Source: Alphaproteobacteria bacterium | Lineage (GTDB): Bacteria > Pseudomonadota > Alphaproteobacteria > UBA8366 | Length of the DNA: 64,000 bases | Assembly: GCA_965228975.1 (NCBI GenBank) | Contig: OZ245851.1 | Coordinates: 4,405,953 to 4,469,952, forward strand | Reading direction: 5' to 3' | Shown: piece after piece, positions 38,451 to 53,652 of the stretch | Layout of the letters: the number at the start of each line of letters is the position of its first letter | Position numbering within the stretch: the stretch's first letter is position 1 | Notes under the pieces: generated by a model | Database searches by the model: none | What the model was told of the DNA's origin: nothing | What the model saw: only the letters and a program-made list of their open reading frames with translations | Translations under genes and position numbers: made by a program

Positions 38451-39881
38451 TCAAGTGGACGATTCCGACGAACGCCAAGACGCCGCCAGCCAGATTCGCG
38501 GCCGCAGTAGCGTCACGGCGAGGAAAGCAAGCAGCAACGCGCCGGACGCCGTCAGCGTCTTGGCGAACGGCGGCAGGAAATCCGCCCCGGCCGTGCCGGC
38601 GCCCACGGGCGTGAAGCCGGTGAAAGCCAAGGCCAGCCCCGTCGCGCCGCTGACGACACCGATCGTCCGGGTCACCATCGCAAGACTGCCGGCCACCCCC
38701 CGTTCGCGCAGCGGCAGGATCGCCGCGACGATCTCCATATAAGCGACCTGGAAGAATCCGAATCCGACACCAACCGTGGCCAATCCCGCAACCATGGTTG
38801 CGATCGATGTCGCAGTGCCCCACTGGCCGATGGCGAGCAATCCCGCCCCGACCAAGACCGCCCCGGCCAAGGCCAATCGCGGCGCGGCGATGCGATCCAG
38901 TAGCCAGCCGCCGGCGGGCCCCGCGAGCACCATCCCGGCGGGGCTCATCGCCAGCACGGCGCCGGCCGTAACCAAGGACAGGTCCGTCATCCGGTCGAGA
39001 TAGAAGGGAACCAGGAACATCACGGCAAAGCCGACCATGTTGACCATGACATTCGAGACATTGACCACCGTGAAAGCCGGATTCCGAAAAAACCGCGGAT
39101 GCAGGATCGGTTCCGGCGACCGCTTCTGCTGCCAAACGAAGGCGGCGAAGCAAGCCAACGCGGCAAGCCCGAGCAACGCCGGCACCAGCGGCTCCCCGGC
39201 GCCGGCATGCCGCGCCTGATTGATCGCCAGCAGGAACGTGCTGAGACCGGCCACCAGCAAGGCCGCGCCGAGAACATCGAACGACCGGGAACCGCTGCCC
39301 GGTTGCGCCTTCGGCAACAGGAACAGCAGGACCAACGTCCCGGCGGCCAACGGCGCCCGGAACCAGAAAACGGCGGACCAGCCCCACTCCGCCACCAGCA
39401 GGCCGCCGAGCGACGGCCCGATCACCCCGCCGAGGCCGAACGCCATCGTGTAGATGCCGAGAACACGGGCGCGGTAAGATTCCGGAAAGAGCATCGTCGC
39501 CAAGGCCGGACCGCAACTTATCACCAACGCCGCGCCCACGCCCTGCAGCGCACGGGCCAGCAACAGCCCGAGGAAGGTCTCGGCCGCACCGCAGAGCGCG
39601 AACGCAACCGCCGACACGAACAATCCGACGCCGAAGATTCTTCGATGCCCGACCAGATCGCCGATCTTGCCGAAGACCAGCGTCAGGCTGGAATAGACCA
39701 ACACATAGCAGATGACGACCCACTGCATATCCTCGAGCGGGACCGCGAAGGCGCGCGTGATGGCGGGAAAGGCGATATTCACCGAGGAGTCGAGCGGCAC
39801 CGTCAAGGTGCCGAGGCCGACGATGAACAGGCCCAGCGCCGCGCGCATCCAACCCCGCTGCGAGGACGTGTCGGCGGTCAT
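38451..39881 (-). CDS. MFS transporter (DHA2-like)
   Basis: ATG at 39881 (MTADTSSQRGWMRAALGLFIVGL...). Motifs GKIGDLVGHRRIF and LARALQGVGAAL. About 14 TM segments. Confidence 0.8.
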   Translation of the reverse strand: MTADTSSQRGWMRAALGLFIVGLGTLTVPLDSSVNIAFPAITRAFAVPLEDMQWVVICYVLVYSSLTLVFGKIGDLVGHRRIFGVGLFVSAVAFALCGAAETFLGLLLARALQGVGAALVISCGPALATMLFPESYRARVLGIYTMAFGLGGVIGPSLGGLLVAEWGWSAVFWFRAPLAAGTLVLLFLLPKAQPGSGSRSFDVLGAALLVAGLSTFLLAINQARHAGAGEPLVPALLGLAALACFAAFVWQQKRSPEPILHPRFFRNPAFTVVNVSNVMVNMVGFAVMFLVPFYLDRMTDLSLVTAGAVLAMSPAGMVLAGPAGGWLLDRIAAPRLALAGAVLVGAGLLAIGQWGTATSIATMVAGLATVGVGFGFFQVAYMEIVAAILPLRERGVAGSLAMVTRTIGVVSGATGLALAFTGFTPVGAGTAGADFLPPFAKTLTASGALLLAFLAVTLLRPRIWLAASWRSSESST

Positions 39882-39993
39882 GAAAAACTCACGGCCGGTC
39901 GGTAAATGTCCTGGCCGACCATCGGTACTGGAATGCTGATCAGGGCAACTCTCCGGATGTCCCGATAACACTACAGCATTGCGAACGCCCGTC

Positions 39994-40341
39994 CTATTGT
40001 TCCGGGATATCGTGCCGGACGTCGTCCCGCCTCAGGTCGTCGATGACCGTTCCTTCCCATAACGGCACGCCCTCGCGATAAGCGGCACGGCCAATCATAT
40101 GCGCCGCGACCGGCGCCGTGACCAAGAGGAAGACGACCGTCGCCAGGGCGCGCGTGGTGATCCCGGCTTCGCCGAAATGAAGCGCAAGCGCCAACAGGAT
40201 CAGCCCGCAGCCGAGCGTGCCCGCTTTGGTCGACGCATGCATGCGAATCAGCACGTCCGGCAACCGCAACACCCCAAGCGCCGCCACGAAGGCGAAAAAC
40301 CCGCCCAGGACGATAACCGTCGCCACCACAATTTCCATCAT
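39994..40341 (-). CDS. mrpG: Mrp/Pha monovalent cation/H+ antiporter subunit G
   Basis: 115 aa with LRLPDVLIRMHASTKAGTLG motif. Last gene of the mrp operon. Confidence 0.85.
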   Translation of the reverse strand: MMEIVVATVIVLGGFFAFVAALGVLRLPDVLIRMHASTKAGTLGCGLILLALALHFGEAGITTRALATVVFLLVTAPVAAHMIGRAAYREGVPLWEGTVIDDLRRDDVRHDIPEQ

Positions 40342-40670
40342 GACTTCGCCTCCTCACCGGAAGAGTTGGATTGTGCGTCCCCCCGGGCCGCCTGGGCGAC
40401 GCGGCGCTCGATATATCGGGCAAGCACCACCGTCGCCAGAAACGCGACGAGGGCCAGCGCAACGCCCACGTCCAGGAACGCCGCCCGCTCGGACGAGATC
40501 GCAACCAAGGCGCAAAAAGCCACCGCCAGGATCGTCATGAGGTCGAGCGCCACGACACGGTCCGCCGCGCTCGGACCCAGCAGGAGCCGGATGAAGGAGA
40601 GAACCAGGGCCGCGATCAGGAAAAAGAAACCGATATCCACCGCCCATGTGAGAATGACGCCGCTTTCCAT
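40338..40670 (-). CDS. mrpF: Mrp/Pha antiporter subunit F
   Basis: 110 aa, 3 TM segments, RLLLGPSAADRVVALD motif. ATGA overlap with mrpG. Confidence 0.85.
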   Translation of the reverse strand: MESGVILTWAVDIGFFFLIAALVLSFIRLLLGPSAADRVVALDLMTILAVAFCALVAISSERAAFLDVGVALALVAFLATVVLARYIERRVAQAARGDAQSNSSGEEAKS

Positions 40671-41143
40671 CAGTCGAATGCCTCCAGCACCTTCCGTTCG
40701 AGACCGTCCTTGATTTCGCGGCGGCTTTCCTCCGGATCGTCGATGAACATCGCATGGACATAGAGCGTCTTGCGATCGTCCGATACGTCGAGGCTGAGCG
40801 AGCCCGGCGTGAGCGACACCAGGTTCGCCACCAACATGATCTGGCCGTCATCCTTCGCGTCGAGCGGTACCGCAATGATGCCCGGACGGCTCCGATGCGC
40901 CGGGGTAATGACATCCCACACCACGCGGAGACTCGAGACGACCAGTTCATACAAGAAGAAGAGGGCGAGACCCGTGACGCTCCAGACGCGTCCGAAATAG
41001 GTCGTCGCGCCGAACAACGGCCGCACGATCCAAAGCGCGCCGTAGCCGACCGCGAATCCGCTGGCCAGGATCGGCCAGGCAAAACTACCCCACAACGCGG
41101 CCCAGCCGAGCGCCAGCAGTCCGTTCAGCAAAAGCAACGTCAT
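40670..41143 (-). CDS. mrpE: Mrp/Pha antiporter subunit E
   Basis: Real start is ATG 41143 (MTLLLLNGLLALGWAALWGSF...), which overlaps the mrpD stop. The listed ORF 40670..42283 is over-extended upstream. Confidence 0.8.
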   Translation of the reverse strand: MTLLLLNGLLALGWAALWGSFAWPILASGFAVGYGALWIVRPLFGATTYFGRVWSVTGLALFFLYELVVSSLRVVWDVITPAHRSRPGIIAVPLDAKDDGQIMLVANLVSLTPGSLSLDVSDDRKTLYVHAMFIDDPEESRREIKDGLERKVLEAFD

Positions 41144-42642
41144 CGCACACCTCGTAAGACCGTCTCGACATAGGCCGTGGGGTCGAGCAACTCGGTGGCG
41201 GACCGCTCGGCCGCGTTCAGGAATGGCTCCGGATAGAACCCGATCCAGAGCGTCAGCACGGCCAGGCCCGCGACCGGCACCAATAGGCAGGTCAGGTCGC
41301 GGCGACCGATAGCAGCGCGCGACGGCAATTCGCCGTCGGGATGCGGCTTCCAGAATGCCTCGGCCCAAATCTTGGTCATCGAGAACACCGTCAGCAACCC
41401 GACGAGCAAGGCGATCCCGGCGATGACATAGGCCTCGGCGTCGAGGCTCGCCTTGACCAGCAAATATTTCGCCCAGAAGCCGGAGAGCGGCGGGAATCCG
41501 GCGAGCGAAAAAGCCGGGATGAGGAACAGGATCGCCAGGATCGGCCGGGATTTGTACAGGCCGCCGATCCGATCCAGATCGAAGGAACCCGTGTAGCGCT
41601 GCACGACCCCGCTGATCAGGAACAGGTTCGCCTTCACGATGATGTGGTGCACCAGATAGAACACCGCCCCGGCAATCGCCAACGGCGCGAAGAGCGCCAA
41701 GCCGAGGACCATGTAGCCGATCTGACTGATGATGTGGAAGGAGAGGATCTTGCGGAACTGGTTCTGCGCCGCGGCGCCCAGCACGCCGGTGATCATCGTC
41801 AACGCCGCGACCACCGACAGGATGCCGTGCGTGTAGCCGATGTCCTGGGTGAAGATCAGGGTGAAGGTGCGGATCAACGCATAGACGCCGACCTTCGTCA
41901 GCAGGCCCGCGAAGATCGCCGAAATGGCGACGGGCGGCGTGTGATAGGACGCCGGCAGCCAGAAGAACAAGGGGAAGACCGCCGACTTGATCCCGAATGC
42001 GACGAGAAACAAAACAGCGACCGCCGTCAGCAAGCCGGTCTCTTCGCTCGCCTGAACGGCGACATGCAGGTCGGCCATGTTGAGTGTCCCGGTCAGGCCA
42101 TACAGCAGGCCGATGCCGCCGAGAAAGAGGATCGTCGATACAAGGTTGAGCGCGACGTATTTGATGCCGCCATCCAATTGCGCCCGGTCGCCGCCCAAAA
42201 CGAGCAGACCGAAGGACGCGATCAGCATGACCTCGAACCAGACATACAGGTTGAAGATGTCGCCGGTCAGGAAAGCCCCGCAAACGCCACCGACCAGGAC
42301 ATGATACAGCGCGTGGAACCCGAGCGCCTCCAGGCGGTCATCGATGTCCGCCAAGGCGTAGACCGCGACCGCCAGCCCGGCGATGGCCGTGATCAGGACC
42401 ATGATAGCGCTCAACAGGTCCGCGACCAGCGTGATGCCGAACGGTGCCGCCCAACCGCCCATCTGCCCGGCGACGATGCCGCCGGTCCAAACCCGGACGG
42501 TCAGCCAAATCGCCGCGAGCAAGAGGGCGAGACTTCCCCCGATGCTGATCGACCGCTGCAGCGCGGGCATGGCGCGCGCGCCGAAGGCGAGGATCGCCGT
42601 CGCAATCGGAATCAGGATCGGGAGGACGAGACCCCAACTCAT
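41140..42642 (-). CDS. mrpD: Mrp/Pha antiporter subunit D (NuoN/NuoM-like)
   Basis: 500 aa proton-conducting membrane transporter fold. Confidence 0.85.
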   Translation of the reverse strand: MSWGLVLPILIPIATAILAFGARAMPALQRSISIGGSLALLLAAIWLTVRVWTGGIVAGQMGGWAAPFGITLVADLLSAIMVLITAIAGLAVAVYALADIDDRLEALGFHALYHVLVGGVCGAFLTGDIFNLYVWFEVMLIASFGLLVLGGDRAQLDGGIKYVALNLVSTILFLGGIGLLYGLTGTLNMADLHVAVQASEETGLLTAVAVLFLVAFGIKSAVFPLFFWLPASYHTPPVAISAIFAGLLTKVGVYALIRTFTLIFTQDIGYTHGILSVVAALTMITGVLGAAAQNQFRKILSFHIISQIGYMVLGLALFAPLAIAGAVFYLVHHIIVKANLFLISGVVQRYTGSFDLDRIGGLYKSRPILAILFLIPAFSLAGFPPLSGFWAKYLLVKASLDAEAYVIAGIALLVGLLTVFSMTKIWAEAFWKPHPDGELPSRAAIGRRDLTCLLVPVAGLAVLTLWIGFYPEPFLNAAERSATELLDPTAYVETVLRGVR

Positions 42643-43028
42643 GACTCCGCCCCGTTCTTCCGGATGGCCGCGGCGGCCGTTGTCCCTTCGGCAATCTGCA
42701 TGGCGTCGCCGTCGACGGTCCCGAGGACGCGCCAGGACCGGTAGACCAGAACCAAGGTGAAGGCGAGCAACCCGAACCCGATCACGATGGCCGTCAGCAC
42801 CAGCGCCTGCGGCAAGGCATTGGCCACCGGCGCCGCGGGCGCGGACAGGCCGCCCGGCACCAGCGGCGGTTCGGCGCGGGTCATCCGCCCTGCGGCGAAG
42901 ATGATCAGGTTCGCCGCGTTGCTGATCAGGACGAGCCCGAACAGGAATTTCACGATGTTACGCCGAAGCATGAGATAGACGCTGGCGGCGACCAACGCGC
43001 CGACGAGAAGAGCCACAAGAGGTTCCAC
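42639..43028 (-). CDS. mrpC: Mrp/Pha antiporter subunit C (NuoK-like)
   Basis: GTG at 43028 (VEPLVALLVGALVAASVYLMLRRNIVKFLFGLVLISNAANL...), 2 nt after the mrpB stop. Confidence 0.75.
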   Translation of the reverse strand: MEPLVALLVGALVAASVYLMLRRNIVKFLFGLVLISNAANLIIFAAGRMTRAEPPLVPGGLSAPAAPVANALPQALVLTAIVIGFGLLAFTLVLVYRSWRVLGTVDGDAMQIAEGTTAAAAIRKNGAES

Positions 43029-43030
43029 GG

Positions 43031-43450
43031 TCAGTCCTCTTCTTCCAACGCGAAGACGAAGGTCAGGACCGCACCGACCACGACGAGATAGACACCGACA
43101 TCGAACATCAGGACCGTACTGACGGGCAGGCCCTTGCCGTCCGCGCTCGCGCCCGCGAACCACCACAGCCCGGTCAGGAAAGCGGCGTCCGCGAAGGCCG
43201 CCGTCAGGCCGGCGCATAACGCCACCCCGAGACCGGTCACGGCGATCATCATGGGATCCACCCGCAGCGCTCGGCGTGCCGCCGCCGCCCCGTGCGCGAT
43301 GGCGTAGAGCGCATATCCGGTCGCCGCCAGGAGGCCGCCGATGAATCCGCCGCCGGGCTCGTTGTGCCCCCGCAACAGCATGAACATCGAGAAGACCAGC
43401 ATCAGGCTGACCAGAATCCGGGTCGCGGCGTTCAGGATGACGGAATTCAC
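43031..43450 (-). CDS. mrpB: Mrp/Pha antiporter subunit B
   Basis: 139 aa with [16 protein letters not shown] motif. Confidence 0.85.
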
Positions 43451-45750
43451 GATGCGTCCTCCGAACGGGGGCGCGCCTTGAGGACCGCATAGGCGGCCAG
43501 TGCGGCGATCACGACCACGGCGATCTCACCGAACGTATCCAGGGCCCGGAAGTCGACCAGGATCACATTGACGATGTTGCGGCCGAAGGCGGCGGGAACG
43601 CTGTTCTCCTCGAAGAAGGCCGTCAGCGTGCGGTCGAAAGGAGTGTGCGTCACCGCCAGGAGAACCAATGTGACAACCGCTCCGGTGCCGAATGCCAAGA
43701 CGGCATCGCGCCGCCGGCCCCAGCGGCTGGTCTGCGCGACCGTATTCAACCGCGGCAATCGCAGCAGAACCACCGCTACCAGGATCACCACGAGCGATTC
43801 GACAAGAAGTTGCGTGATCGCGACGTCCGGCGCGCCGTTTAGCAGGAACAAGAGGGCGACGCCGACGCCGACGGTTCCAAGCGCGGCCATGGCGGCCAAC
43901 CGGGACGCGGAAAACACGACCGCAACGGTGCCCGCGAGGACCAACGCAGCGACGCCCCATTCCACCAACGCCAGACTGGGCCAAGCGCTCGGCAATTTCA
44001 GCGCATCCCGCAAGACCAGCGTCGCCCCGACCGACAGGGTCAGGACCGTGAAGACCACCGCGATATACCGGCGCAACAACCCGCCCTGCAGCCAATCCGT
44101 CTGCGCCGCCGCAATCCAGCGCAGCCCCTGCAGGCACCGATCGTACGCTTCGTCGCCGCTGATCGGCAGGCGCGCGAAGCTCGCAGCCAATACATCGCGC
44201 AATCGCCAATGGCCCGCGTAGATCGCGATCCCCGTCAGGAACGTCATCATGCTGAGCATGAGCGGCAGGTTGATACCGTGCCAGAGGGCCAACTGGACCG
44301 TTTCCGGGCGCCCGAGGATCGCCGCGACGCCGGGCTGCACCAATGTGTCCGCGACCAGCGCCGGCGCGACGCCGAATGCCAGCCCCATCACGGCGAGCAA
44401 CAAGGGACCGACCCACATTCGGAACGGCACCTCCGCCGGCGCCCTCGGCGTGGACGTTCGTTCGCCGAAGAAGGGCTGGAGGGCCACGATCCCTGCAACG
44501 CCCACCATCAATGCGTTGGCGAGGACAGCCGCAGACGCCACCAACGCCGGTTCGGAGGCGATCGCCAAGGCGCCTTCGTATTTCAGCTCCTTGCCGATGA
44601 ACCCGAGGAACGGCGGAAAGCCGGCCATCGACAACGCGGACGCGGCCGCGATGAAGACAGTGATCGGCATGACGCGCCGGAGGCCACCCAATTGGCGGAT
44701 ATCGCGGGTTCCGGTGCTGTAGTCGATATTGCCGACCACAAGGAACAACGCCGCCTTATAAAGGGAATGGACGATAAGGAAGGTAACGGCGGCGGCGACG
44801 GCGACCGTCGCTTCCGCGCCTAGGAACATGGTCAACGTCCCGAGCGCCATGACCGTGGTATAGGCCAACATCATCTTGAGGTCGGTCTGCCGAATCGCCA
44901 ACAGCGAGGCGTAAATAGCGGTCGCCGCCCCGAAGGCCGTCAGCGTCCAGATCCATAAATCGGTCCCGCTCAGCGTCGGATGCATCCGCGCCAACAAATA
45001 AACGCCGGCTTTCACCATGGTCGCGGAATGCAGGAACGCGCTGACCGGCGTCGGCGCGGCCATCGCATTCGGCAGCCAAAAATGAAACGGAACCTGCGCC
45101 GATTTGGTGAAGGCGCCGATCAGGATCAGCACGAGGATACCGGCGTAATGGGGGTGTGCGCGGATAAGGTCGCCACTGGCGATGATTTCCGACAGTTCGA
45201 AACTGTCGGCCGCGTTGCCGAGCAGGATGAATCCGGCAAGCAGGACCAGCCCGCCGGCGCCGGTTACCAACAGCGCTTGCAGCGCCGACCGGCGCGCCTT
45301 GGGCGACGTGTGGTCATAGCCGATCAACAGATAGGACGTGATCGTCGTTACTTCCCAAAAGACGAACAGAGTGATCAGGTTGTCGGCCAGGACCAGCCCC
45401 AGCATCCCGCCCATGAACAGAGAAAGGTAGAGAAAGAAGCGGCAGAAATGGGCATGGCCCGCGAGGTAAGCCGATGAGTAGGTCAGGATAACGATGCTGA
45501 TGACGCTGATCAGGAGCCCGAATGTCAGGCTCAGACCATCGATGAGAAACGAGAAGTTGACGCCGATGCCCGGCACCCATGGCACGCCGATCCGCAAGGC
45601 CTCTCCCGCGGCCACCGTCGGCAGCAAACTCGCCAATAGCCCCGCGGCGGCGATTGCGGGTACAAGCGCCAGCGGCACCGTTAGGCGCGCCATTGGCGAC
45701 AACGTCGCCCGCATCGGCCGGTCGGCCGGATCTTTAGTCCCCGAATTCAT
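43447..45750 (-). CDS. mrpA: Mrp/Pha antiporter subunit A (NuoL-like with C-terminal MrpB-like domain)
   Basis: 767 aa. The exact start among the N-terminal Met codons is uncertain. Confidence 0.85.
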
Positions 45751-45844: not shown

Positions 45845-45877
45845 GTCGGCAGCCGGCCGCCCACCGGGCGGCCGACG
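45845..45877 (-). terminator. GC-rich stem-loop downstream of the DUF465 gene (candidate terminator, no U-tract)
   Basis: CGGCCGCCC-ACC-GGGCGGCCG, a perfect 9-bp stem at 45854-45874 with additional flanking pairing. Confidence 0.45.
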
Positions 45878-45912: not shown

Positions 45913-46170
45913 TTATCGATCCGGCATTACACCTGCCGCCGGCCCGGACGAAACCCTATCGGACGTGCGTTCGATTGCGGCGAGCGCGTCCTTGATGCGC
46001 AGCTTTCGCCGTTTCATCTCCTGCATCGCCAAACCGTCAACCGCCGGCCGCGCCGTTTCTCGGCCGATTCGGTCTTCGAGTTCCCGATGGATCCGGATCA
46101 GGGTTTCATAGCGGCGGGTGAGCGCCGGTCCGTCGCTGTACTCGATGTTCAACGCAGTGCTGGAACTCAT
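45913..46170 (-). CDS. DUF465 (YdcH-like) small protein
   Basis: 85 aa with LAMQEMKRRKLRIKDAL motif. GGGAGA RBS. ATG overlaps the stop of the upstream IDH gene (ATGA). Confidence 0.7.
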   Translation of the reverse strand: MSSSTALNIEYSDGPALTRRYETLIRIHRELEDRIGRETARPAVDGLAMQEMKRRKLRIKDALAAIERTSDRVSSGPAAGVMPDR

Positions 46171-47696
46171 GTGTTTTCTCCCTGGGCCAAGGTGTATCCG
46201 GCGGTTCCGTCAAAATGCTGGAGCTTTTCGACATGCATCCAACGGTGGATATCGCCGATACGGCTCAGCAGGGCGAGGAGGTCGGCGTCGCCCTGCGATC
46301 GGTCGCCCTCGGTCCATGCGAACCGGCATCGCCAATGGTTTACGGTGTCGGTGTATGAGCTGCGCCCCGGGTAAACCTTCGTTCCGCGGTTCGAGATCAT
46401 CGAGAGCCGAAAGCTGGTCCCGAAAATCGCGGTCTCCAGGCTCTGCCCTAGTGCATCCGCGTTGCCCTTCCATTCGATGAATACGTCGACGCCGGCTGTC
46501 TCGCGCGACACCTCGCCCAACGGGCCATGAACCACGTCGGGCATTTGCAGCGGTTTGTGTTTTCTATTCACCAACTGCCGGGCGCTGCGTCCGAAGTTAT
46601 CGATGATGGCGCCCGCGAAGGCGGCAGTGCCGACCGGATCGGCATCGCGCGCTATATCGGCGGTCAGCTGCGTCCCATCCTCGAGCGTGCAATACAATGC
46701 ATTCTCGATAACGCTGGCGACTTCGCGCTCGCCAATGTGGCGCAACATCATAACAGCGGAAAGAATTAGCGCGGTCGGATTGGCGATCCCTTCGCCCGCG
46801 ATATCCGGCGCCGACCCATGGACCGCTTCAAACATGGCGACATGGCGTCCAAGGTTTGCGCTCGGCGCCAAGCCGAGACCACCGACCAGGCCGGCGGCAA
46901 GATCGCTTAGAATGTCGCCGTTCATGTTGGTGGTTACCAATACGTCGAAGGATTCGGGAGCGACCACCATCTTGTGGGCACAGTTATCGACCACGAGATG
47001 TCCGGACTCGAACTCGGGATGATCGGCGGCCACCGCCTCAAAGGTCGATTTGAAGAGCCCTTCGGTCAGCTTCATGATGTTCGCCTTGGTCGCGCATTCG
47101 ACCTTGCGCCGATCCTCCGCGCGCGCCAGCGCGAAAGCGAGCCGCGCGACCTTCTCGCTGCCTTTCCGGGAAATCAGTTTGAGGCACTGCGCAACGTCGG
47201 GTGTCTGCATATGCTCGATGCCGGCGTAAAGATCCTCCACATTCTCCCGGACCACGACGAAGTCGATATCCCGTCCTGCAAATGGTGTTGCGATGCCCGG
47301 CAGCGCCTTCACGGGCCGAATATTTGCGTACAGCTCGAAGAGTTTGCGCAACGTCACGTTCGCGCTCTTTTCACCGAACCCGATCGGCGTTTCCAGCGGG
47401 CCTTTCAACACCACGCCGGCGCCCTCGATCGCGTCCAGGGTTTCATCGGGCACACCGGAGGCAATGCCGTCGCGGAATACACTGGAACCCGCGTCGCAAA
47501 CCTGCCAGTTGACCGAAGCGCCCGCCTCCTCGACAACGCTCATGACCGAACGCATCAGTTCCGGCCCGACGCCATCGCCCGGAAGGACGACGACCGAATG
47601 CGTAACTTGTTTTTCCCGATCCACCGATGTCGCGGTAGACGGCAACGACCGGACGTTGCCGGACGACGATCCTAAAGAGTCGAATTCATACATCAT
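46167..47696 (-). CDS. Isocitrate/isopropylmalate dehydrogenase-family enzyme, long form with a C-terminal extension of about 125 aa (alphaproteobacterial-type IDH-like)
   Basis: ATG at 47696 preceded by GGAGGAA. VVVLPGDGVGPEL, NLRPV-like NIRPV, RENVEDLYAG and NMNGDILSDLAAGLVGGLGLAPSAN. The extra domain follows FAGAIIDNFG. Confidence 0.75.
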   Translation of the reverse strand: MMYEFDSLGSSSGNVRSLPSTATSVDREKQVTHSVVVLPGDGVGPELMRSVMSVVEEAGASVNWQVCDAGSSVFRDGIASGVPDETLDAIEGAGVVLKGPLETPIGFGEKSANVTLRKLFELYANIRPVKALPGIATPFAGRDIDFVVVRENVEDLYAGIEHMQTPDVAQCLKLISRKGSEKVARLAFALARAEDRRKVECATKANIMKLTEGLFKSTFEAVAADHPEFESGHLVVDNCAHKMVVAPESFDVLVTTNMNGDILSDLAAGLVGGLGLAPSANLGRHVAMFEAVHGSAPDIAGEGIANPTALILSAVMMLRHIGEREVASVIENALYCTLEDGTQLTADIARDADPVGTAAFAGAIIDNFGRSARQLVNRKHKPLQMPDVVHGPLGEVSRETAGVDVFIEWKGNADALGQSLETAIFGTSFRLSMISNRGTKVYPGRSSYTDTVNHWRCRFAWTEGDRSQGDADLLALLSRIGDIHRWMHVEKLQHFDGTAGYTLAQGENT

Positions 47697-47768
47697 TGCA
47701 GTTCCTCCATACCGCTTGATATGAGACTGCACAGAAGATTGTCCCAATCGATACATACAGGGCGTTTG

Positions 47769-47783
47769 ATTGGTTTTATCTAT
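47769..47783. promoter_or_regulatory. LysR/OxyR-type dyad ATTG-N7-CTAT (within TTGATTGGTTTTATCTATTAG)
   Basis: About 73 bp upstream of the IDH-like start, in an AT-richer pocket. Same extended motif as four other intergenic sites. Confidence 0.4.
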
Positions 47784-47822
47784 TAGTGAAAATTCGATTG
47801 CCGGCGACGGTCGAGGGCGGAT

Positions 47823-48833
47823 CTAGGCAGGTTCCGGTTCGGCCATTTCCAATCGTTCCGGGGCCTTGTCCGGGGCGGGAATCTTGACCGGGGTCTCGAA
47901 TCCGATCGGTTTCACCGCCAGAACCGAACAGTCGATCTGGTTGAGGATCGATTCCGCCGTATTGCCGATCAACAGCCCGCTGATGCCGGTGCGAGCGACG
48001 GTGCCCATCACGATCAATTCGACCCGTTTTTTGCGGGCAATCTCCGGGATCACCACGCGGGCATCGCCTTTGATGAGATGCAATTGCCGGCGCCGGTTCT
48101 CGATTTCATAACCGTCGACCACGCCATCGAGCAGCGCCTTCCGGTGCTTTCGCTCCAACCGGAGCATCTTGTCGAGCTCGGCCTCGGGAATCTTAATCCG
48201 AGGATTGGACCGCAACATCTTCTCGCCTTCGAACTGCCAGGCGTTCACGATCTGGAGCTCGCTTTTCTCGATCGCGGATAGCGACGTTGCCAGGTCCATG
48301 ATCAACGTGTTGAGACCGTTGCGTTCGGCGTCTGCGCCGTGGGGGTCCACGGCGGCAAGGATACGAGCGTACTTCTTGCGTTGACTCTGCTTGATGATCC
48401 AAACCGGGCAGGGACATTTCCGCAGCAAATGCAGGTCCAGACTTCCGAAAAACAGGTTGCGCCCTTCCCGGTTGCCCGTCGCATCCTTCATCACCAGATC
48501 GTGGCCGTTCCGAAGCACCTCCTCGATGATCTCAATGAAGGCGACGCCCTGGGCCAAGAGGCACTGTACGGAAACGCCCCGCTTTTCCAGGTCCGCAGCG
48601 ATTTCACGAAGTCGCTTTTCACGCTGCTCGAACACCTGCTGCTCCAGGTCCCAAGACGTCCGCTCGGTCATGCCGCCAAGAAAGCGGGCATAATCGCCGA
48701 TGCCGCGTTGCATGATATCAATCAGGGTCAGCGCGGCGTTGTTCGCCTTGGCAAGCGCACAGGCGCGCTCGACAACCGCTTGCGGTGGCCCTTGTTCGTC
48801 GCAGACCAACAAAATTTTCTTAAAGCGTTTCAT
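47823..48833 (-). CDS. Tandem universal stress protein (two UspA domains, UspE-like)
   Basis: 336 aa. MKRFKKILLVCD..., then a second domain starting KKYARILAAVDP.... The G-x2-G-x9-G-S/T-like ATP motif region is MGTVARTGISGLLIGNTAESIL. Confidence 0.85.
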   Translation of the reverse strand: MKRFKKILLVCDEQGPPQAVVERACALAKANNAALTLIDIMQRGIGDYARFLGGMTERTSWDLEQQVFEQREKRLREIAADLEKRGVSVQCLLAQGVAFIEIIEEVLRNGHDLVMKDATGNREGRNLFFGSLDLHLLRKCPCPVWIIKQSQRKKYARILAAVDPHGADAERNGLNTLIMDLATSLSAIEKSELQIVNAWQFEGEKMLRSNPRIKIPEAELDKMLRLERKHRKALLDGVVDGYEIENRRRQLHLIKGDARVVIPEIARKKRVELIVMGTVARTGISGLLIGNTAESILNQIDCSVLAVKPIGFETPVKIPAPDKAPERLEMAEPEPA

Positions 48834-48965
48834 CCGTCCATCACCAGTCCTGTTTCACTCCCTGACAATCGGGCCAAAAAGGGCCGGCACAACTCGCCGC
48901 CAGGTCCGCTTAGGGAAATTGGGCGACCAACTTTATCGGGCCAATCGAATTTAAAATGTGTCTTG

Positions 48966-48980
48966 ATTGGACTTGTCTAT
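48966..48980. promoter_or_regulatory. LysR/OxyR-type dyad ATTG-N7-CTAT (within TTGATTGGACTTGTCTATGAG), with a weaker ATCG-N7-CGAA dyad at 48935-48949
   Basis: 133-147 bp upstream of the usp start at 48833. The 16-mer GGGCCAATCGAATTTA at 48938-48953 is repeated as GGGCCAATCGATTTTA at 49627-49642. Confidence 0.4.
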
Positions 48981-49623
48981 GAGATCGCCGTGATGCCTTC
49001 CCGCTTTCACGGCGCGTCCCGGCAAGCGTCGGGAGCATCGGTCCCGTGTCATACGAGCGCGCAATCGCTGGCCTCGTTGCTACGCTCGTTGACATCCTCG
49101 CTCCCGGACAACGCGTCGGGCACGCCGCCACCCTCGCCAACCCTTAGCGTCCGAGGCGTCCATTCCTGCCTACCGCCCGCACATTCAGGCGAACCGCCGG
49201 ACACAACGGCCGTCGTCCGGAGGAGACCCGGCCCGTCGCCGGGCATCGTCGCCGACGCGGGCCCGACGGCGACTGCCGTCAGGACGGTGCCGATAAACAG
49301 GGCCTCGAGCGACAACTTTCTACGGCCGGAAAGTAGGGGCCGATCCGCGATATCGCAGGCTGCCAGCCGGTCAATACGCCGATCACACATGAAGGTCCAC
49401 CGTCGTGCCGCGGGTGGTATCGACCGGCACGCGTGTCGCGGTTCGCGTCGTGACCGACCGCGGATTCCGGCGCACACCTTCCGGATTCGGCGGGCGCCGA
49501 TACCATGTCGCGGGACCCATCCAATGGGTCGAAGAACCGATTGGCGCGATGTTGAATGTCGTCATTTCCTGCACCTCCCGCTCATTACGGTTTCGTCCTA
49601 ATCGAAATGGGGTTTGACTTTTG

Positions 49624-49638
49624 ATTGGGCCAATCGAT
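49624..49638. promoter_or_regulatory. LysR/OxyR-type dyad ATTG-N7-CGAT in the divergent region upstream of the LysR gene
   Basis: TTGATTGGGCCAATCGATTTT lies 63-77 bp upstream of the LysR start codon, the typical position for LTTR autoregulation. Confidence 0.45.
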
Positions 49639-49700
49639 TTTATTCGGGAGTTCGATAGAAAACCCCAACCACCAAACTTCGGATTTCAAGAGGACGATAC

Positions 49701-50621
49701 ATGCCGACCGTCAAACAACTGCGTTACCTGGTCGCCATCGCCGATACGCTGCATTTCCGGCGTGCCGCCGAGATGACGCATGTCACGCAACCGACGCTCA
49801 GCGGTCAACTTCGGGAACTGGAGTCCCGCCTCGGCGTCCAACTTGTCGAGCGCAGCCGGGCGCGGGTGGTGCTAACGCCGGTCGGCAAAGAAATCGCGGC
49901 GCTGGCGCGGACGGTCCTGCATGACGTCCAGCGCATCACCGAAATCGCCAAGCACGGGCAGGAACCGCTGGGCGGCACCATCCGGCTTGGCGTCCTGCCG
50001 ACGCTCGGCCCCTATCTCCTCCCGCATATTCTGCCGGAACTGCATGAAAACTACCCCGATCTCAAACTCTATATCCGCGAGGGAATGCCGACCGCCCTGT
50101 TGTATGGTTTGGAGGAAGGGCAGCTCGACCTGCTTTTGTTCGCGCTGCCGGTCCGGGGCGGCGACCTGCAAACCACGCGGCTGTTCCGCGAGCCGCTATG
50201 GATCGCCGCGCCGGCGGATCACCACCTCGCGGAAAAGGACATTGCGGACCGGTCCGACCTCAAGGGCGAAACGGTCCTGTCGCTCGAGCGCGGCCACCGG
50301 CTGCACGAACAGGTAAGCCACCTTTGCCAGCAGTACGGCGCGACGCTGTCCCTGGATTATGAGGGGACGAGCCTCGATACTCTGCGGCAGATGGTTGCGA
50401 TGGGAATGGGTTTGTCCTTCTTCCCGTCGCTATACGTCCATGCCGAGATGAAGGAGGACGGCCAAGTGGTCGCGCGGCAAATGCGGTCTCACCCGCCAAG
50501 CCGGATGGTGGGCATGGTCTGGCGCAAGAACAGCCCGAACCAGACGGATTTCCAAACCTTGGCGAAGTTGATCAGGCGCATACTCAAGGATCGCGTGACC
50601 GGCGTTACCGTAATGACCTGA
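49701..50621 (+). CDS. LysR-family regulator, OxyR-like but with the peroxide-sensing Cys199 position replaced by Arg
   Basis: HTH LHFRRAAEMTHVTQPTLSGQLRELE, and GVLPTLGPYLLPHILP, both align with E. coli OxyR. E. coli LEDGHCLRDQ...GFCFEAG corresponds here to LERGHRLHEQ...HLCQQYG. Confidence 0.8.
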   Translation: MPTVKQLRYLVAIADTLHFRRAAEMTHVTQPTLSGQLRELESRLGVQLVERSRARVVLTPVGKEIAALARTVLHDVQRITEIAKHGQEPLGGTIRLGVLPTLGPYLLPHILPELHENYPDLKLYIREGMPTALLYGLEEGQLDLLLFALPVRGGDLQTTRLFREPLWIAAPADHHLAEKDIADRSDLKGETVLSLERGHRLHEQVSHLCQQYGATLSLDYEGTSLDTLRQMVAMGMGLSFFPSLYVHAEMKEDGQVVARQMRSHPPSRMVGMVWRKNSPNQTDFQTLAKLIRRILKDRVTGVTVMT

Positions 50622-50639
50622 CACCGGCCCGGCGGCGAC

Positions 50640-50858
50640 CTACAGAAGGAACGCCGCGAGCAGGACCAGGATCACGATGATGCCGATTGTCGACCACTTG
50701 GTGAGCGCGACGAAATTCTCCCAGGCTTCGACATGCGGTTCGATTTCCTGTTGCATCGGCCGGCGCGGCGGCGCAGCGAATGCAGCAGCGCCATTCTTTC
50801 CATTGGCCGCGGGGGCGTTTTTCATCGCCGCCGCCGATCCCGTGCTCGGTCCATCCAT
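50640..50858 (-). CDS. Small C-terminally anchored membrane protein resembling aa3-type cytochrome oxidase subunit IV (COX4_pro_2-like)
   Basis: ATG at 50858 preceded by AGGGAGGA. The C-terminal 35 aa, EPHVEAWENFVALTKWSTIGIIVILVLLAAFLL, fit the H..W/F..F...KW-TM pattern as recalled. Confidence 0.45.
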   Translation of the reverse strand: MDGPSTGSAAAMKNAPAANGKNGAAAFAAPPRRPMQQEIEPHVEAWENFVALTKWSTIGIIVILVLLAAFLL

Positions 50859-50959
50859 TCCCTGTCCTCCCTATGGGTCGCTGCGCCGGCGGTAAGCACG
50901 CCGACGTTGTTCCAGGTGGGAAAGGGAACCGGACAGACAAATCGTTTCAAAGGGACGCC

Positions 50960-51006
50960 TTGATAGGAAAAGTCGATCAAATCACCTTATTGATTTTTCC
51001 TATCAA
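50960..51006. promoter_or_regulatory. Perfect 12-bp inverted repeat TTGATAGGAAAA-N23-TTTTCCTATCAA containing two OxyR-type dyads
   Basis: ATAG-N7-CGAT at 50963-50977 and ATTG-N7-CTAT at 50989-51003. Lies 102-148 bp upstream of the start of the small membrane protein gene. Confidence 0.5.
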
Positions 51007-51257
51007 AATTTTGCCATGTTCGAATTGGAACGATCACAGGCGCAACGCCATACTTCGAAGACGCAAGCGGTCGCCCAGACGCGCATCTCGACGAAAAGCT
51101 TAACGGTCAGCTTCCGCGTCAAGGAATTCAGTGCGGGGCGACCAAATCGAATACTGAGTCCGCCTCCGCTTGCCTCGCCGCTATACGCGGAGTCGGAGCG
51201 CCGTCGGCTGAAGCGACGGCGGCGCGGGGCGATCCGACACGCCCTTGCCGCGCGGGG

Positions 51258-51284
51258 GGATAGGGAAGAGTCCCCTCCCTATCC
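51258..51284 (-). terminator. Stem-loop overlapping the stop codon of the second usp gene (candidate terminator)
   Basis: GGATAGGGA-N9-TCCCTATCC, a perfect 9-bp stem. Confidence 0.4.
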
Positions 51285-52232
51285 CTCCAGCGCAACCGGC
51301 GAGACGAAACCGTCGGGCTTGAGTGTCAGCACCGAACAATCCACCTGCCGAAGAACGTCTTCGGCGGTCGTGCCAATGAGGAAGCCGGCGATCCCGGTGC
51401 GTGTCGCCGTTCCCATGACGATGAGATCGACGGCATTCTCGGCCACCAGCTCGGGAATCAGCAGGCTGGGGTTGCCGCGGGGCAAATGGACCTCGAAGTC
51501 CAGGTTTTCCATGTCCACTTCGGCGAGAAGACGGTCGAGTGCCGCCTCGCGCGCCCTTGTGTTTACGGCAATCAGACGGTCGCGAATGGTGTCGTCGATT
51601 TCGGACCGGCTGGTATCGAGGTCGGTCCCGGTATAATCCCACACATTCGCAATATCGAGATGACAATCTTCCATCCTTGCGAGCGAACTCGCCATCTCGA
51701 GAATTTTTATGTCCAACGGATTCAACGGGGCATCGGACGGGCCCGGATCGACAGCGGCGAGAATGCGATGAAACCGCCGCTCCGCCTTCGGCTTCATCAC
51801 CCAGACAGGGCACGGACATTTGCGCATGACGTGCATCGAGTTGCTGCCGAACGTGATGGACCGCAGGCCGCGCAAGCTGTCCGCCGTCATGACCACGAGG
51901 TCGAAACCGTCCCGCAGAACGGCCCGGACAATAGCCAGGAAGACCTTGCCTTGGGCGACCGCGCCATCGACTTCGACGCCCTGCTGCCGTAGCGGATCGA
52001 TCAATCGTTCGATCAGCGCCCGCCGCTCCTCGAAATAGCGCCCCTGCAAATCGCGCTGCTCGGAAGCCGAAGAACCGAATGGCGCGGCCGCAAGGCTCGG
52101 CATCCGCTCGATCACCTCGAGCACGGTCAGGCGCGCGCCGTTGCGTTTCGCCAGGGCGGTCGCCCGATCCAGCGCGGCATCGTCGCCAACGCTCTGGTTG
52201 TACAGCATCAGAATATTCTTAAAGCGTTTCAT
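51279..52232 (-). CDS. Tandem universal stress protein, paralogue of 47823..48833
   Basis: ATG at 52232 (MKRFKNILMLYNQSVG...). Same two-domain layout and conserved blocks (FGSNSMHVMRKCPCPVWV, MGTATRTGIAGFLIGTTAEDVL). Confidence 0.85.
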   Translation of the reverse strand: MKRFKNILMLYNQSVGDDAALDRATALAKRNGARLTVLEVIERMPSLAAAPFGSSASEQRDLQGRYFEERRALIERLIDPLRQQGVEVDGAVAQGKVFLAIVRAVLRDGFDLVVMTADSLRGLRSITFGSNSMHVMRKCPCPVWVMKPKAERRFHRILAAVDPGPSDAPLNPLDIKILEMASSLARMEDCHLDIANVWDYTGTDLDTSRSEIDDTIRDRLIAVNTRAREAALDRLLAEVDMENLDFEVHLPRGNPSLLIPELVAENAVDLIVMGTATRTGIAGFLIGTTAEDVLRQVDCSVLTLKPDGFVSPVALEG

Positions 52233-52340
52233 CTTTCCGTCCCAACGACCCGGCGAAGTACCGATCCGCCTAATGCATCGACATCGCATGTATGTGGTGC
52301 GGCAGAAAGATTTCGACGAATGATTAATACGGCCGTTTTG

Positions 52341-52355
52341 ATAGAATTCTTCTAT
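52341..52355. promoter_or_regulatory. Perfect OxyR-type dyad ATAG-N7-CTAT (within the palindrome TGATAGAATTCTTCTATCA)
   Basis: 109 bp upstream of the usp start at 52232 and about 205 bp upstream of divergent gldA. Confidence 0.5.
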
Positions 52356-52560
52356 CAGGAGGATTGGCTTCGTTCATCCATAAGCCCTTTCCTTCAACGG
52401 CATCGCCGGATGCGCCCCGCCGCCTTGAAAGGCGCCATTACCGGGCAACCTTGACTCACATCAACGATACGCCGGCCGGGCGCGGCAATATGGGCGCCCG
52501 GTTCCGACGGGCTTCGTCGCAATAGGCAGCCCCCCTCAAACCCTGTATGGAGCGAAGACA

Positions 52561-53652
52561 ATGCTAACAACGGCGATCTTTCCCGGAAGATACGTGCAAG
52601 GCGCTCATGCACTTTCGGTATTGGACGAGGAATGCGAGCGGTTGGGTGAACGGCCGCTCGTACTGGAGGACCCGAATGTCCGCGAGGCCCTGGACGCCGA
52701 CCTCGCCAACGCCGGCGGGTCGGTCGCCGAGACTTTCGGCGGCGAGTGTTCCCAGCGCGAGATTGACCGGATCATCGACCGTGCGAAATCGGAAAATTGC
52801 GATGCCGTCGTCGGCGTGGGCGGCGGCAAGACGCTCGACACCGCAAAGGCCGTCGCCTTCGAACTCCAACTGCCGGTCGTGATCGTGCCGACCATCGCGT
52901 CGACGGACGCACCTTGCAGCGCCCTGTCCGTGATCTACACCGATGACGGCGCGTTCGAGCGATATCTCATCCTGCCCCGCAATCCGGACGTGGTGATCGT
53001 CGATACCGCGCTTGTTGCCAAGGCACCGGTCCGCTTCCTCGTCGCCGGAATGGGCGATGCCCTGGCGACGTGGTTCGAGGCCGACTCCTGCCGCATCCGG
53101 CGGGCCGCCAACATGACCGGCCGTCCCGGAACCATGACGGCCTATGCCCTGGCGCGGCTCTGTTACGACACGCTGCTCGAATACGGCACCCTCGCCAAGT
53201 CGGCGGTGGAAACGCAAAGCGTCACCCCGGCGCTCGAACATGTGGTGGAAGCAAACACCCTTCTCTCGGGCCTCGGATTCGAGAGCGGCGGTCTCGCCGC
53301 CTGCCACGCCATCCATAACGGCCTGACCAGCCTAAGCGCCACGCATGCATTCTGGCATGGGGAAAAGGTCGCGATCGGCGTGCTCGCCGCGCTGTTCCTG
53401 ACGGATAAGCCAAAAGACATGATCGACGAGGTTTACGGCTTCTGCGAATCGGTCGGCCTGCCGACGACGCTGGACGACATCGGCCTCGCGAACGTATCCG
53501 ATGCCGACTTGGAACTGGTTGCGAGCACCGCCTGCGCGCCGGGCGAGACCATCCACAACGAACCCGCCGACGTGCAGCCCGAGACCGTCCTTTGGGCGAT
53601 CAAAGCCGCCGATCGCGAAGGGCGGCGGCGCGCGGAGAAAAGCGCGGCATAA
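52561..53652 (+). CDS. gldA: Glycerol dehydrogenase (iron-containing ADH family III)
   Basis: GGGKTLDTAKAVA, VPTIASTDAPCSALSVIY and GMGDALATWFEA motifs. 363 aa. Confidence 0.8.
   Translation: MLTTAIFPGRYVQGAHALSVLDEECERLGERPLVLEDPNVREALDADLANAGGSVAETFGGECSQREIDRIIDRAKSENCDAVVGVGGGKTLDTAKAVAFELQLPVVIVPTIASTDAPCSALSVIYTDDGAFERYLILPRNPDVVIVDTALVAKAPVRFLVAGMGDALATWFEADSCRIRRAANMTGRPGTMTAYALARLCYDTLLEYGTLAKSAVETQSVTPALEHVVEANTLLSGLGFESGGLAACHAIHNGLTSLSATHAFWHGEKVAIGVLAALFLTDKPKDMIDEVYGFCESVGLPTTLDDIGLANVSDADLELVASTACAPGETIHNEPADVQPETVLWAIKAADREGRRRAEKSAA

Follow-up and report, generated by a model that had tools for sequence, protein, structure and literature searches.

Six predicted two-part operators of an OxyR-derived LysR-type regulator at a locus of tandem universal stress proteins and Mrp antiporter genes in an alphaproteobacterium

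The 64-kb stretch of alphaproteobacterial DNA analyzed here (contig OZ245851.1, positions 4,405,953 to 4,469,952; called the window throughout) encodes a LysR-type transcriptional regulator (LTTR) of the OxyR clade. Judged from its nearest relatives, the source is an uncultured bacterium close to Kiloniellales, Pelagibius and Denitrobaculum. Around it are clustered genes for two tandem universal stress proteins (USPs), an NADP-isocitrate dehydrogenase (IDH), a DUF465 protein, a membrane mini-protein and a short open reading frame (ORF), with a cluster of Mrp antiporter genes further downstream on the minus strand. The intergenic regions between these genes carry six copies of an element that combines two different dyads in a fixed register and which, we predict, serves as the operator of the adjacent regulator. 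The regulator and the protein-coding genes considered as its predicted targets are the following:

45913-46170, minus strand: DUF465 gene, second in the predicted target operon IDH-DUF465 (45913-47696; Pfam and NCBIfam).
46167-47696, minus strand: gene for IDH, first in the same operon.
47823-48833, minus strand: tandem USP, UspE-like (USP1; two Pfam Usp domains).
49383-49574, minus strand: ORF of 63 aa.
49701-50621, plus strand: LysR-type regulator of the OxyR clade, 306 aa (HTH_1 and LysR_substrate).
50640-50858, minus strand: 72-aa membrane protein similar to aa3 oxidase subunit IV (COX4_pro_2; PF07835, 31 bits), here called the COX4-like mini-protein.
51279-52235, minus strand: second tandem USP (USP2; two Pfam Usp domains).

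A sequence-only reading of this DNA had listed seven occurrences of a dyad in five intergenic pockets and had proposed that an OxyR-like regulator governs a local regulon through them. All seven were found again at their positions, and they are dyads of the OxyR/LTTR type (T-N11-A). The window holds 11 matches to the core motif ATWG-N7-CKAT where 4.9 +/- 2.1 would be expected, and eight of the 11 lie within 47738-52355. For the extended form TGATWG-N7-CKAT, of which 0.29 +/- 0.56 matches are expected in 64 kb, six were found in five places, all within 47767-52357, a number that none of 100 shuffles reached. TTGATWG by itself is not significantly enriched in the window (14 matches, 8.6 expected). 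Nor, within the window, is the motif equally frequent in other AT-rich DNA, the outcome that the sequence-only reading had named as contrary to its proposal: the AT-rich pockets (80-nt GC <= 50%) elsewhere in the window, 42 in number and 4897 nt in total, contain no match to either form, and the pockets within 47690-52420 (1431 nt) contain eight matches to the core and six to the extended motif.

The functional unit, taken previously to be the single dyad, is better described as a two-part operator of ~50 bp in which two different dyads stand in a fixed 31-bp register. Exactly 31 bp from the strong dyads at 47766 and 48963, on the promoter-proximal side, a second, different dyad is located (at 47735 and 48932, respectively), and both of these partners contain CCAATCGA; the other strong dyads have their 31-bp partners at 49654, ~50930, 51018-51036 and 52309. 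The consensus of the whole element is GATTGnnCCAATCGAAA (site 1) followed exactly 31 bp further by TTGATAGnnnnnnTCTATCA (site 2), the distance between the dyad centres corresponding to about three helical turns. Site 2 is the strong dyad, TTGATAG-N7-CTATCA, and contains GATA-N9-TATC, while site 1 holds a distinct consensus of its own, CCAATCGAAA, together with a -35-like TTGGnn. The dyad at 48935, formerly regarded as weak, is a good copy of this other site type, site 1.

The same architecture is found far outside the window. Loci with relatives of the LysR gene were collected from 80 genomes, with protein identities from 96% to 51% (close metagenome-assembled genomes, Pelagibius, Denitrobaculum and many Rhodobacterales), and alignment, by expectation maximization (EM), of the 250 nt that precede each LysR orthologue yielded an element made up of site 1, (T)GATTGnTCCAATCGAAA, 13 variable bases and site 2, TTGATAGAnnTnnTCTATCA. 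In 77 of the 80 loci a two-part operator scoring more than 25 bits stands immediately before the LysR orthologue, and its 31-bp register is invariant, so that the sites are conserved at orthologous loci, a point that the sequence-only reading had put forward as a check. In two of the exceptions (L014 and L016) the operator precedes the USP gene instead; the remaining one (L043) has only a weak copy, at 18-21 bits, before LysR. As the operator is kept directly upstream of the LysR orthologues, the sites appear to be tied to the adjacent LysR gene.

An independent 56-nt matrix was then derived from 73 loci, with the window and its four close relatives left out, and used to scan both strands of the window. 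It gave six matches of 19-45 bits, all located at 47.7-52.4 kb. The only further score above the null (50 simulated windows with a maximum of 9.0 bits and a mean of -5.0) was 10.0 bits and comes from reading operator A on the other strand; elsewhere in the window no score exceeded 2.7. The matrix learned beside LysR in distant genomes thus picks out precisely the five pockets and separates them into six operators, and scans with single-site matrices give the same picture. This lends good support, as a prediction, to the local regulon proposed earlier, which comprises IDH-DUF465, both tandem USPs, the COX4-like mini-protein and a small ORF. The six operators, with their matrix scores, are:

47732-47787, plus strand: operator A, 40.8 bits, upstream of IDH-DUF465; site 1 at 47736-47754, AGATTGTCCCAATCGATAC; site 2 at 47765-47785, TTTGATTGGTTTTATCTATTA.
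48929-48984, plus strand: operator B, upstream of tandem USP1, with the highest score of the window (45.3 bits); site 1 at 48933-48951, TTATCGGGCCAATCGAATT; site 2 at 48962-48982, CTTGATTGGACTTGTCTATGA.
49618-49673, plus strand: operator C, 39.0 bits, between the divergently read 63-aa ORF and LysR gene; site 1 at 49622-49640, TGATTGGGCCAATCGATTT, facing the 63-aa ORF; site 2 at 49651-49671, TTCGATAGAAAACCCCAACCA, with a degenerate right half, 27 nt before the LysR ATG.
50926-50981, plus strand: operator D(+), 19.4 bits, upstream of the COX4-like mini-protein gene; site 1 at 50930-50948, weak, containing AAATCG; site 2 at 50959-50979, CTTGATAGGAAAAGTCGATCA.
50985-51040, minus strand: operator D(-), 41.5 bits, back to back with D(+) and facing rightwards; site 2 at 50987-51007; site 1 at 51018-51036.
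52304-52359, plus strand: operator E, 27.8 bits, upstream of tandem USP2; site 1 at 52308-52326, degenerate; site 2 at 52337-52357, TTTGATAGAATTCTTCTATCA.

Alignments with the four close relatives (L001-L004) show the operator blocks conserved while their flanks drift. Operator A has counterparts upstream of IDH in L003 and L004, and operator B an orthologous operator upstream of USP1 in L002. All four relatives keep the D(+) blocks CAAATCGTTT and TTGATAGGAAA..TCGATC, operator D(-) (with scores of 31-37) and operator E, whose site 2, a palindrome with perfect 8-bp arms, is the best of the window when sites are scored singly (34.4 bits). The dyad listed earlier at 50989 is present, but the minus strand gives the better reading of it. 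Together, the site-2 copies of D(+) and D(-) (50959-51007) make up an imperfect palindrome of 47 nt, whose outer arms, TTGATAGGAAAA and TTTTCCTATCAA, match perfectly over 12 bp. The arrangement implies that two regulator complexes may be bound back to back on a divergent promoter pair.

In all six operators site 1 is the site nearer to the target, which reads away from the operator: IDH-DUF465 at A, USP1 at B, the 63-aa ORF directly behind C, the COX4-like gene at D(+), USP2 at E, and at D(-) a candidate plus-strand RNA described below. The LysR gene itself is found on the site-2 side of operator C. The product of the 63-aa ORF is conserved in L002-L004 (78, 62 and 35% identity, respectively, with 18 invariant positions) and matched no Pfam or NCBIfam family.

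The polarity of the operator can be related to promoter elements. In the LysR-type layout the activation site is located over the -35 hexamer and the recognition site near position -65. In 46 Rhodobacterales loci the strand leading into USP reads TTTCGATTGGAyCAATCA and then, always equally far on, CCTATCT. The pair TTGGAY-N17-CTATCT contained in this sequence resembles CTTGAC-N17-CTATAT, the sigma-70 consensus of alphaproteobacteria, and 35-40 nt separate the operator edge from the USP start codon. The centre of site 1 would then lie near -33 and that of site 2 near -64 of the divergent USP promoter, in a putative LysR-type layout. On the other side, the start codon of LysR in Rhodobacterales is found 2-46 nt (mostly ~3-15) past the 56-nt operator window, which itself ends 2 nt past site 2. 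It lies so close to site 2 that the regulator's own promoter would have to overlap this site, as expected for autorepression. Promoter-like pairs were noted by eye in the window at operators A (TTGGGA-N17-TCATAT), B (TTGGCC-N17-CAATTT), C (TTGGCC-N17-CCATTT) and D(-) (TTGGAA-N17-CCATAC), and the -10-like CCATACTT at D(-) (51050-51057) is invariant in all five genomes. A promoter scan for sigma-70 sites of E. coli type found no match in 47.6-52.6 kb, a result called uninformative; the absence of a strong promoter of that type is as expected of activator-dependent promoters. Two other kinds of elements were considered and rejected: an FNR/FixK-type box (TTGA-N6-TCAA), since the spacings here are TTGAT-N11-ATCA or N7 and never N4, and a promoter of the general stress sigma factor EcfG (GGAAC-N16-17-CGTT) near 50925, where the spacing is 13.

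The regulator has the domain layout of an LTTR (PF00126, 74 bits; PF03466, 174 bits). Its top NCBIfam match is the OxyR equivalog NF008361, at 265 bits and thus below the cut-off of 329 bits, and it scores 203 bits against OxyR of P. aeruginosa (4x6g). The recognition helix is nearly identical to that of OxyR (HVTQPTLSGQLRELE compared with HVSQPTLS..), so that half-sites of the ATAG/CTAT kind recognized by OxyR are to be expected. In the alignment with 4x6g the position of OxyR Cys199 is occupied by Arg in the window protein, and by R, K, Q or N, never by Cys, in all 81 family members. The equivalent of Cys208 (residue 209 in the window protein) is Cys in the window protein and in 70 of 81 orthologues, and is the sole conserved Cys column; the column numbering follows an E. 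coli OxyR sequence, and the 4x6g alignment agrees with it. Because residue 199 is Arg, no signal can be received through the Cys199-Cys208 disulfide of OxyR. Public databases name the protein "hydrogen peroxide-inducible genes activator", and the Pfam/NCBIfam annotation of the window placed no peroxide-defence gene (katG, ahpCF, dps and others) beside any of the six operators. The canonical OxyR motif consists of four ATAG elements separated by heptanucleotides, with dyad centres 22 bp apart (PMC3378865). The regulator that the sequence-only reading called OxyR-like is, judged by its sequence, OxyR-derived but not canonical OxyR, having no Cys199, an equivalog score below the cut-off and operators with 31-bp instead of 22-bp spacing.

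In 16 Rhodobacterales loci (L018-L020, L025, L034, L041, L045-L050, L052, L056, L072 and L076) a second, tandem LysR paralogue of ~50% identity is encoded ~300 nt downstream of the LysR orthologue. It has Ala, Thr or Val at the Cys199 position and keeps Cys208.

The comparison of loci also brings in two predicted targets absent from the list of the sequence-only reading, namely the Mrp antiporter cluster and the plus-strand RNA candidate. Of the 80 loci, 73 had contigs long enough to judge when the window MrpA was used as a tblastn query, and in 65 of these 73 the Mrp cluster is read divergently from LysR. A tandem USP comes first in 46 of these 65, and the remaining 19 have no full-length tandem USP beside LysR; counted over all 80 loci, 48 have a tandem USP divergent from LysR, 46 of them with MrpA behind it and two on short contigs. 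Judging by coordinates, mrpA of Rhodobacterales begins right at the USP stop. In the Kiloniellales-like clade (L006, L007, L011 and L012) a second operator precedes DUF465, which is followed by mrpA; in L008 a second operator stands directly before mrpA, and in L002 it lies 284 nt before it with only a 48-aa ORF between. The divergent Mrp/USP layout, together with these second operators before DUF465 and mrpA, suggests that the ancestral unit was LysR divergent from (USP)-(DUF465)-mrp. Throughout the 1.39 Mb of loci, matches above 18 bits occur only beside LysR, USP, DUF465 or Mrp genes. Rhodobacterales have one operator per 20 kb, the clade of the window three to five per locus, and the window six. 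A pattern scan of metagenomes that was not anchored on LysR (CCAATCGAAA-N13-TGATAG) returned mostly chance matches and no new regulon members; a full operator (score 40 or more) was present in seven of 120 matches, and all seven adjoin LysR, USP or MrpA homologues.

The window departs from this arrangement in that IDH-DUF465, which has its own operator, separates USP1 from mrpA, and mrpA lacks one:

43447-45750, minus strand: mrpA, first gene of the Mrp antiporter cluster, downstream of DUF465 (Proton_antipo_M/MbhD/MbhE).

The full Mrp-type cluster occupies 38451-45750 on the minus strand (MrpA, MnhB and MNHE domains, then an MFS transporter). A GC-rich hairpin without a T-run, GGCCGCCCGGTGGGCGGCC, is found at 45855-45873 (minus strand) in the 163-nt gap between DUF465 and mrpA. 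Since this hairpin follows DUF465 and mrpA is without an operator, co-transcription of the mrp genes with IDH-DUF465 is uncertain.

Operator D(-) faces rightwards, towards a predicted transcript convergent with USP2:

51064-51295, plus strand: candidate non-coding transcript (ends inferred), predicted target of D(-).

No conserved ORF exists to the right of D(-), because the relatives differ there by 1- and 2-nt indels. A 206-aa ORF at 51016-51636 was rejected as a gene: it has no Pfam match, is antisense to USP2 and is disrupted by frameshifting indels in the relatives. The last ~140 nt before the USP2 stop (51155-51295) show 85-97% identity in the four relatives while the flanks diverge, and fold into four hairpins. 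At seven one-sided substitutions G-U pairing is kept on the plus strand and C-A mismatches arise on the minus strand, which with five sequences is modest evidence for strand-specific pairing (roughly p = 0.04 by sign test). An Rfam scan of the whole window returned no family. The segment 51155-51295 is thus a candidate small RNA, convergent with USP2, that may be controlled by the regulator.

To the right of operator E the next gene is:

52561-53652, plus strand: gldA, glycerol dehydrogenase, probably outside the regulon.

It had been named as a possible target. The gene lies on the site-2 side of operator E, no site 1 faces it, and the minus-strand matrix score at operator E, towards gldA, is -0.9. 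Upstream of gldA, ~100 bp closer than operator E, a block containing TTGACT, CCTTGACTCACATCAACGATACGCCGGCCGG (52450-52480, plus strand), is identical in L001 and has two differences in L002; it is probably gldA's own promoter, independent of the operator. Because of its position on the site-2 side and this conserved promoter-like block of its own, gldA is not counted as a target and probably does not belong to the regulon.

We consider it likely that the dyads are halves of six two-part operators of the LysR-type regulator encoded at 49701-50621, and that this protein acts as a classical activator and autorepressor. Under this prediction site 2 would be the recognition site and site 1 the activation site, a tetramer of the regulator occupying both dyads. 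Through site 2 the regulator would repress its own promoter; on receiving its signal, presumably a non-thiol one, it would activate the weak promoters at the site-1 end of the operators. Ancestrally, its target would have been the tandem-USP/Mrp-antiporter cluster divergent from the regulator, from which, in the lineage of the window, the operator would have spread to IDH-DUF465, the second USP, the COX4-like mini-protein, the 63-aa ORF and the structured RNA.

Several points weigh against such an account. The use of the sites by the regulator is predicted from sequence, and activation rather than repression we infer solely from the geometry and the LysR-type paradigm. The whole-operator scores of D(+) (19 bits) and E (28 bits) show that site 1 is weak in both. 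A canonical OxyR or a paralogue encoded elsewhere would share the half-site preference and could use the sites as well. With a window of 64 kb and loci of 20 kb, moreover, what looks like a local regulon may equally be the visible part of a larger one. Some of these points can be put as alternatives. Dyad centres near -64 and -33 correspond, by general knowledge of the family, to the classical layout of a LysR-type activator, and the target promoters, like activator-dependent ones, are without good consensus hexamers. It is therefore unlikely that the same regulator acts at the same operators mainly as a repressor, with site 1 over the -35 blocking RNA polymerase until a signal releases it, even though site 1 does overlap a -35-like hexamer and an LTTR, NdhR, represses the Mrp-like mnh operon of Synechocystis (PMC4390856).

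We give little credence to a further possibility, that the sites are used mainly by another protein of the OxyR clade, either a paralogue or a canonical OxyR whose gene lies outside the window, which would make the LysR protein a bystander or competitor. The PA1054 six-gene operon of P. aeruginosa is one which we take to encode a Sha/Mrp antiporter. A ChIP-chip site of P. aeruginosa OxyR lies before this operon, and ATAG/CTAT half-sites are those of true OxyR (PMC3378865); moreover, a paralogue is encoded just downstream of LysR in the 16 Rhodobacterales loci. The operator, however, stays beside the LysR gene in 77 of 80 genomes whether the paralogue is present or not, and the 22-bp dyad spacing of canonical OxyR is replaced here by a fixed spacing of 31 bp and a distinct site 1, CCAATCGAAA. 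That these are no regulator sites at all, only chance similarity of AT-rich DNA, core promoter elements, leftovers of duplication or a small mobile repeat, is hardly credible. TTGATWG alone lacks significant enrichment, site 1 contains a -35-like hexamer, and USP1 and USP2 are paralogues, but the two proteins are only ~40% identical, so that neutral DNA similarity would be long gone, and no similarity is present outside the operators. Against it stand also the strong enrichment of the full motif, the dyad symmetry including the perfect 8-bp-arm palindrome at operator E, the conservation at orthologous positions while flanks diverge, and the recovery of the sites by the distant-genome matrix.

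Beyond the assignment of the operators to the LysR protein, it can be proposed tentatively that the regulator represents a widespread OxyR-derived family which has no thiol switch and senses a non-oxidative cue (cation or pH stress, or else 2-oxoglutarate or NADP(H)). It would drive a USP-Mrp module, and the lineage of the window would have captured extra targets including NADP-IDH and a structured small RNA; this wider proposal we regard as possible, with somewhat less in its favour than would make it probable. A literature search found no description of the regulator family, of its USP-Mrp link, or of a LysR regulator of USP, DUF465 or Mrp genes in alphaproteobacteria, nor of any regulator of Mrp operons in these bacteria. 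The analysis offers a precise operator model and a predicted regulon for a LysR family distributed across marine alphaproteobacteria (Kiloniellales-like bacteria, Pelagibius, Denitrobaculum and many Rhodobacterales), which databases label OxyR although OxyR-style peroxide sensing is impossible for it. The finding is useful and can be tested, although in principle it is no surprise. In the predicted regulon, tandem USPs, DUF465 and the Mrp antiporter would be joined in one control unit, by which the poorly understood USP and DUF465 proteins would gain a functional context in ion or pH homeostasis, and the window would illustrate how local spread of an operator may recruit genes, and possibly a small RNA, around a regulator.

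Among known systems, LsrB/VtlR of Rhizobiales is an OxyR-like LTTR present beside OxyR, whose function needs the conserved C144 and C273 (PMC11975290). The family of the window regulator has one conserved Cys column and a different neighbourhood, and it is set apart by the description of LsrB; identity with LsrB was ruled out on the cysteine pattern. HhmR of Halomonas was ruled out as well, being unrelated to mrp. Regulators of cation/proton antiporter genes are known among other LysR subfamilies. NhaR of E. coli is LysR-type and controls nhaA in response to Na+. The PDB structure 5y2v, labelled "Rubisco operon transcriptional regulator" and presumably that of NdhR, scores 80 bits against the window regulator, compared with 203 for OxyR. 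NdhR/CcmR of Synechocystis represses the Mrp-like mnh operon and has 2-oxoglutarate and NADP+ as effectors (PMC4390856). Both are LysR-type and control Na+/H+ antiporter genes, as is predicted for relatives of the window regulator, and differ from it in subfamily; the presence of NADP-IDH in the predicted regulon is only suggestive of NdhR-like effectors.

A closer parallel at the DNA level is the OxyR-Like protein of Magnetospirillum gryphiswaldense MSR-1 (MGMSRv2_2107), an alphaproteobacterial OxyR homologue without the reactive cysteines, which targets the pdh operon and has a phenotype in magnetosome formation (PMC5308003). In DNase I footprinting, the regions that it protects at pdh and at the promoter of its own gene contain GATA-N9-TATC and a second, A/T-rich site (PMC5308003). 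Site 2 of the operator described here has exactly the form GATA-N9-TATC, and it is likewise accompanied by a second site at the regulator's own promoter. The authors of that work, however, place OxyR-Like nearest to the aminoethylphosphonate LysR type, for which the window regulator scores 107 bits against 265 for OxyR; judged from the published domain description, orthology of the two proteins is doubtful.

OxyR of E. coli and P. aeruginosa is the best sequence match of the regulator, and shares with it the T-N11-A dyads with ATAG/CTAT half-sites, the presence of two dyads per operator and Cys208. The window regulator differs in the loss of Cys199, in its score below the equivalog cut-off, in the 31-bp spacing of the dyads (22 bp in OxyR) and in a site 1 with its own consensus, as well as in its neighbouring targets, which are USP, Mrp, DUF465 and IDH genes and not those of catalases or peroxiredoxins. 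In 1994 Toledano et al. reportedly found that reduced OxyR also contacts two pairs of grooves one helical turn further apart; that contact spacing of the reduced state would resemble the 31-bp register of the operators described here.

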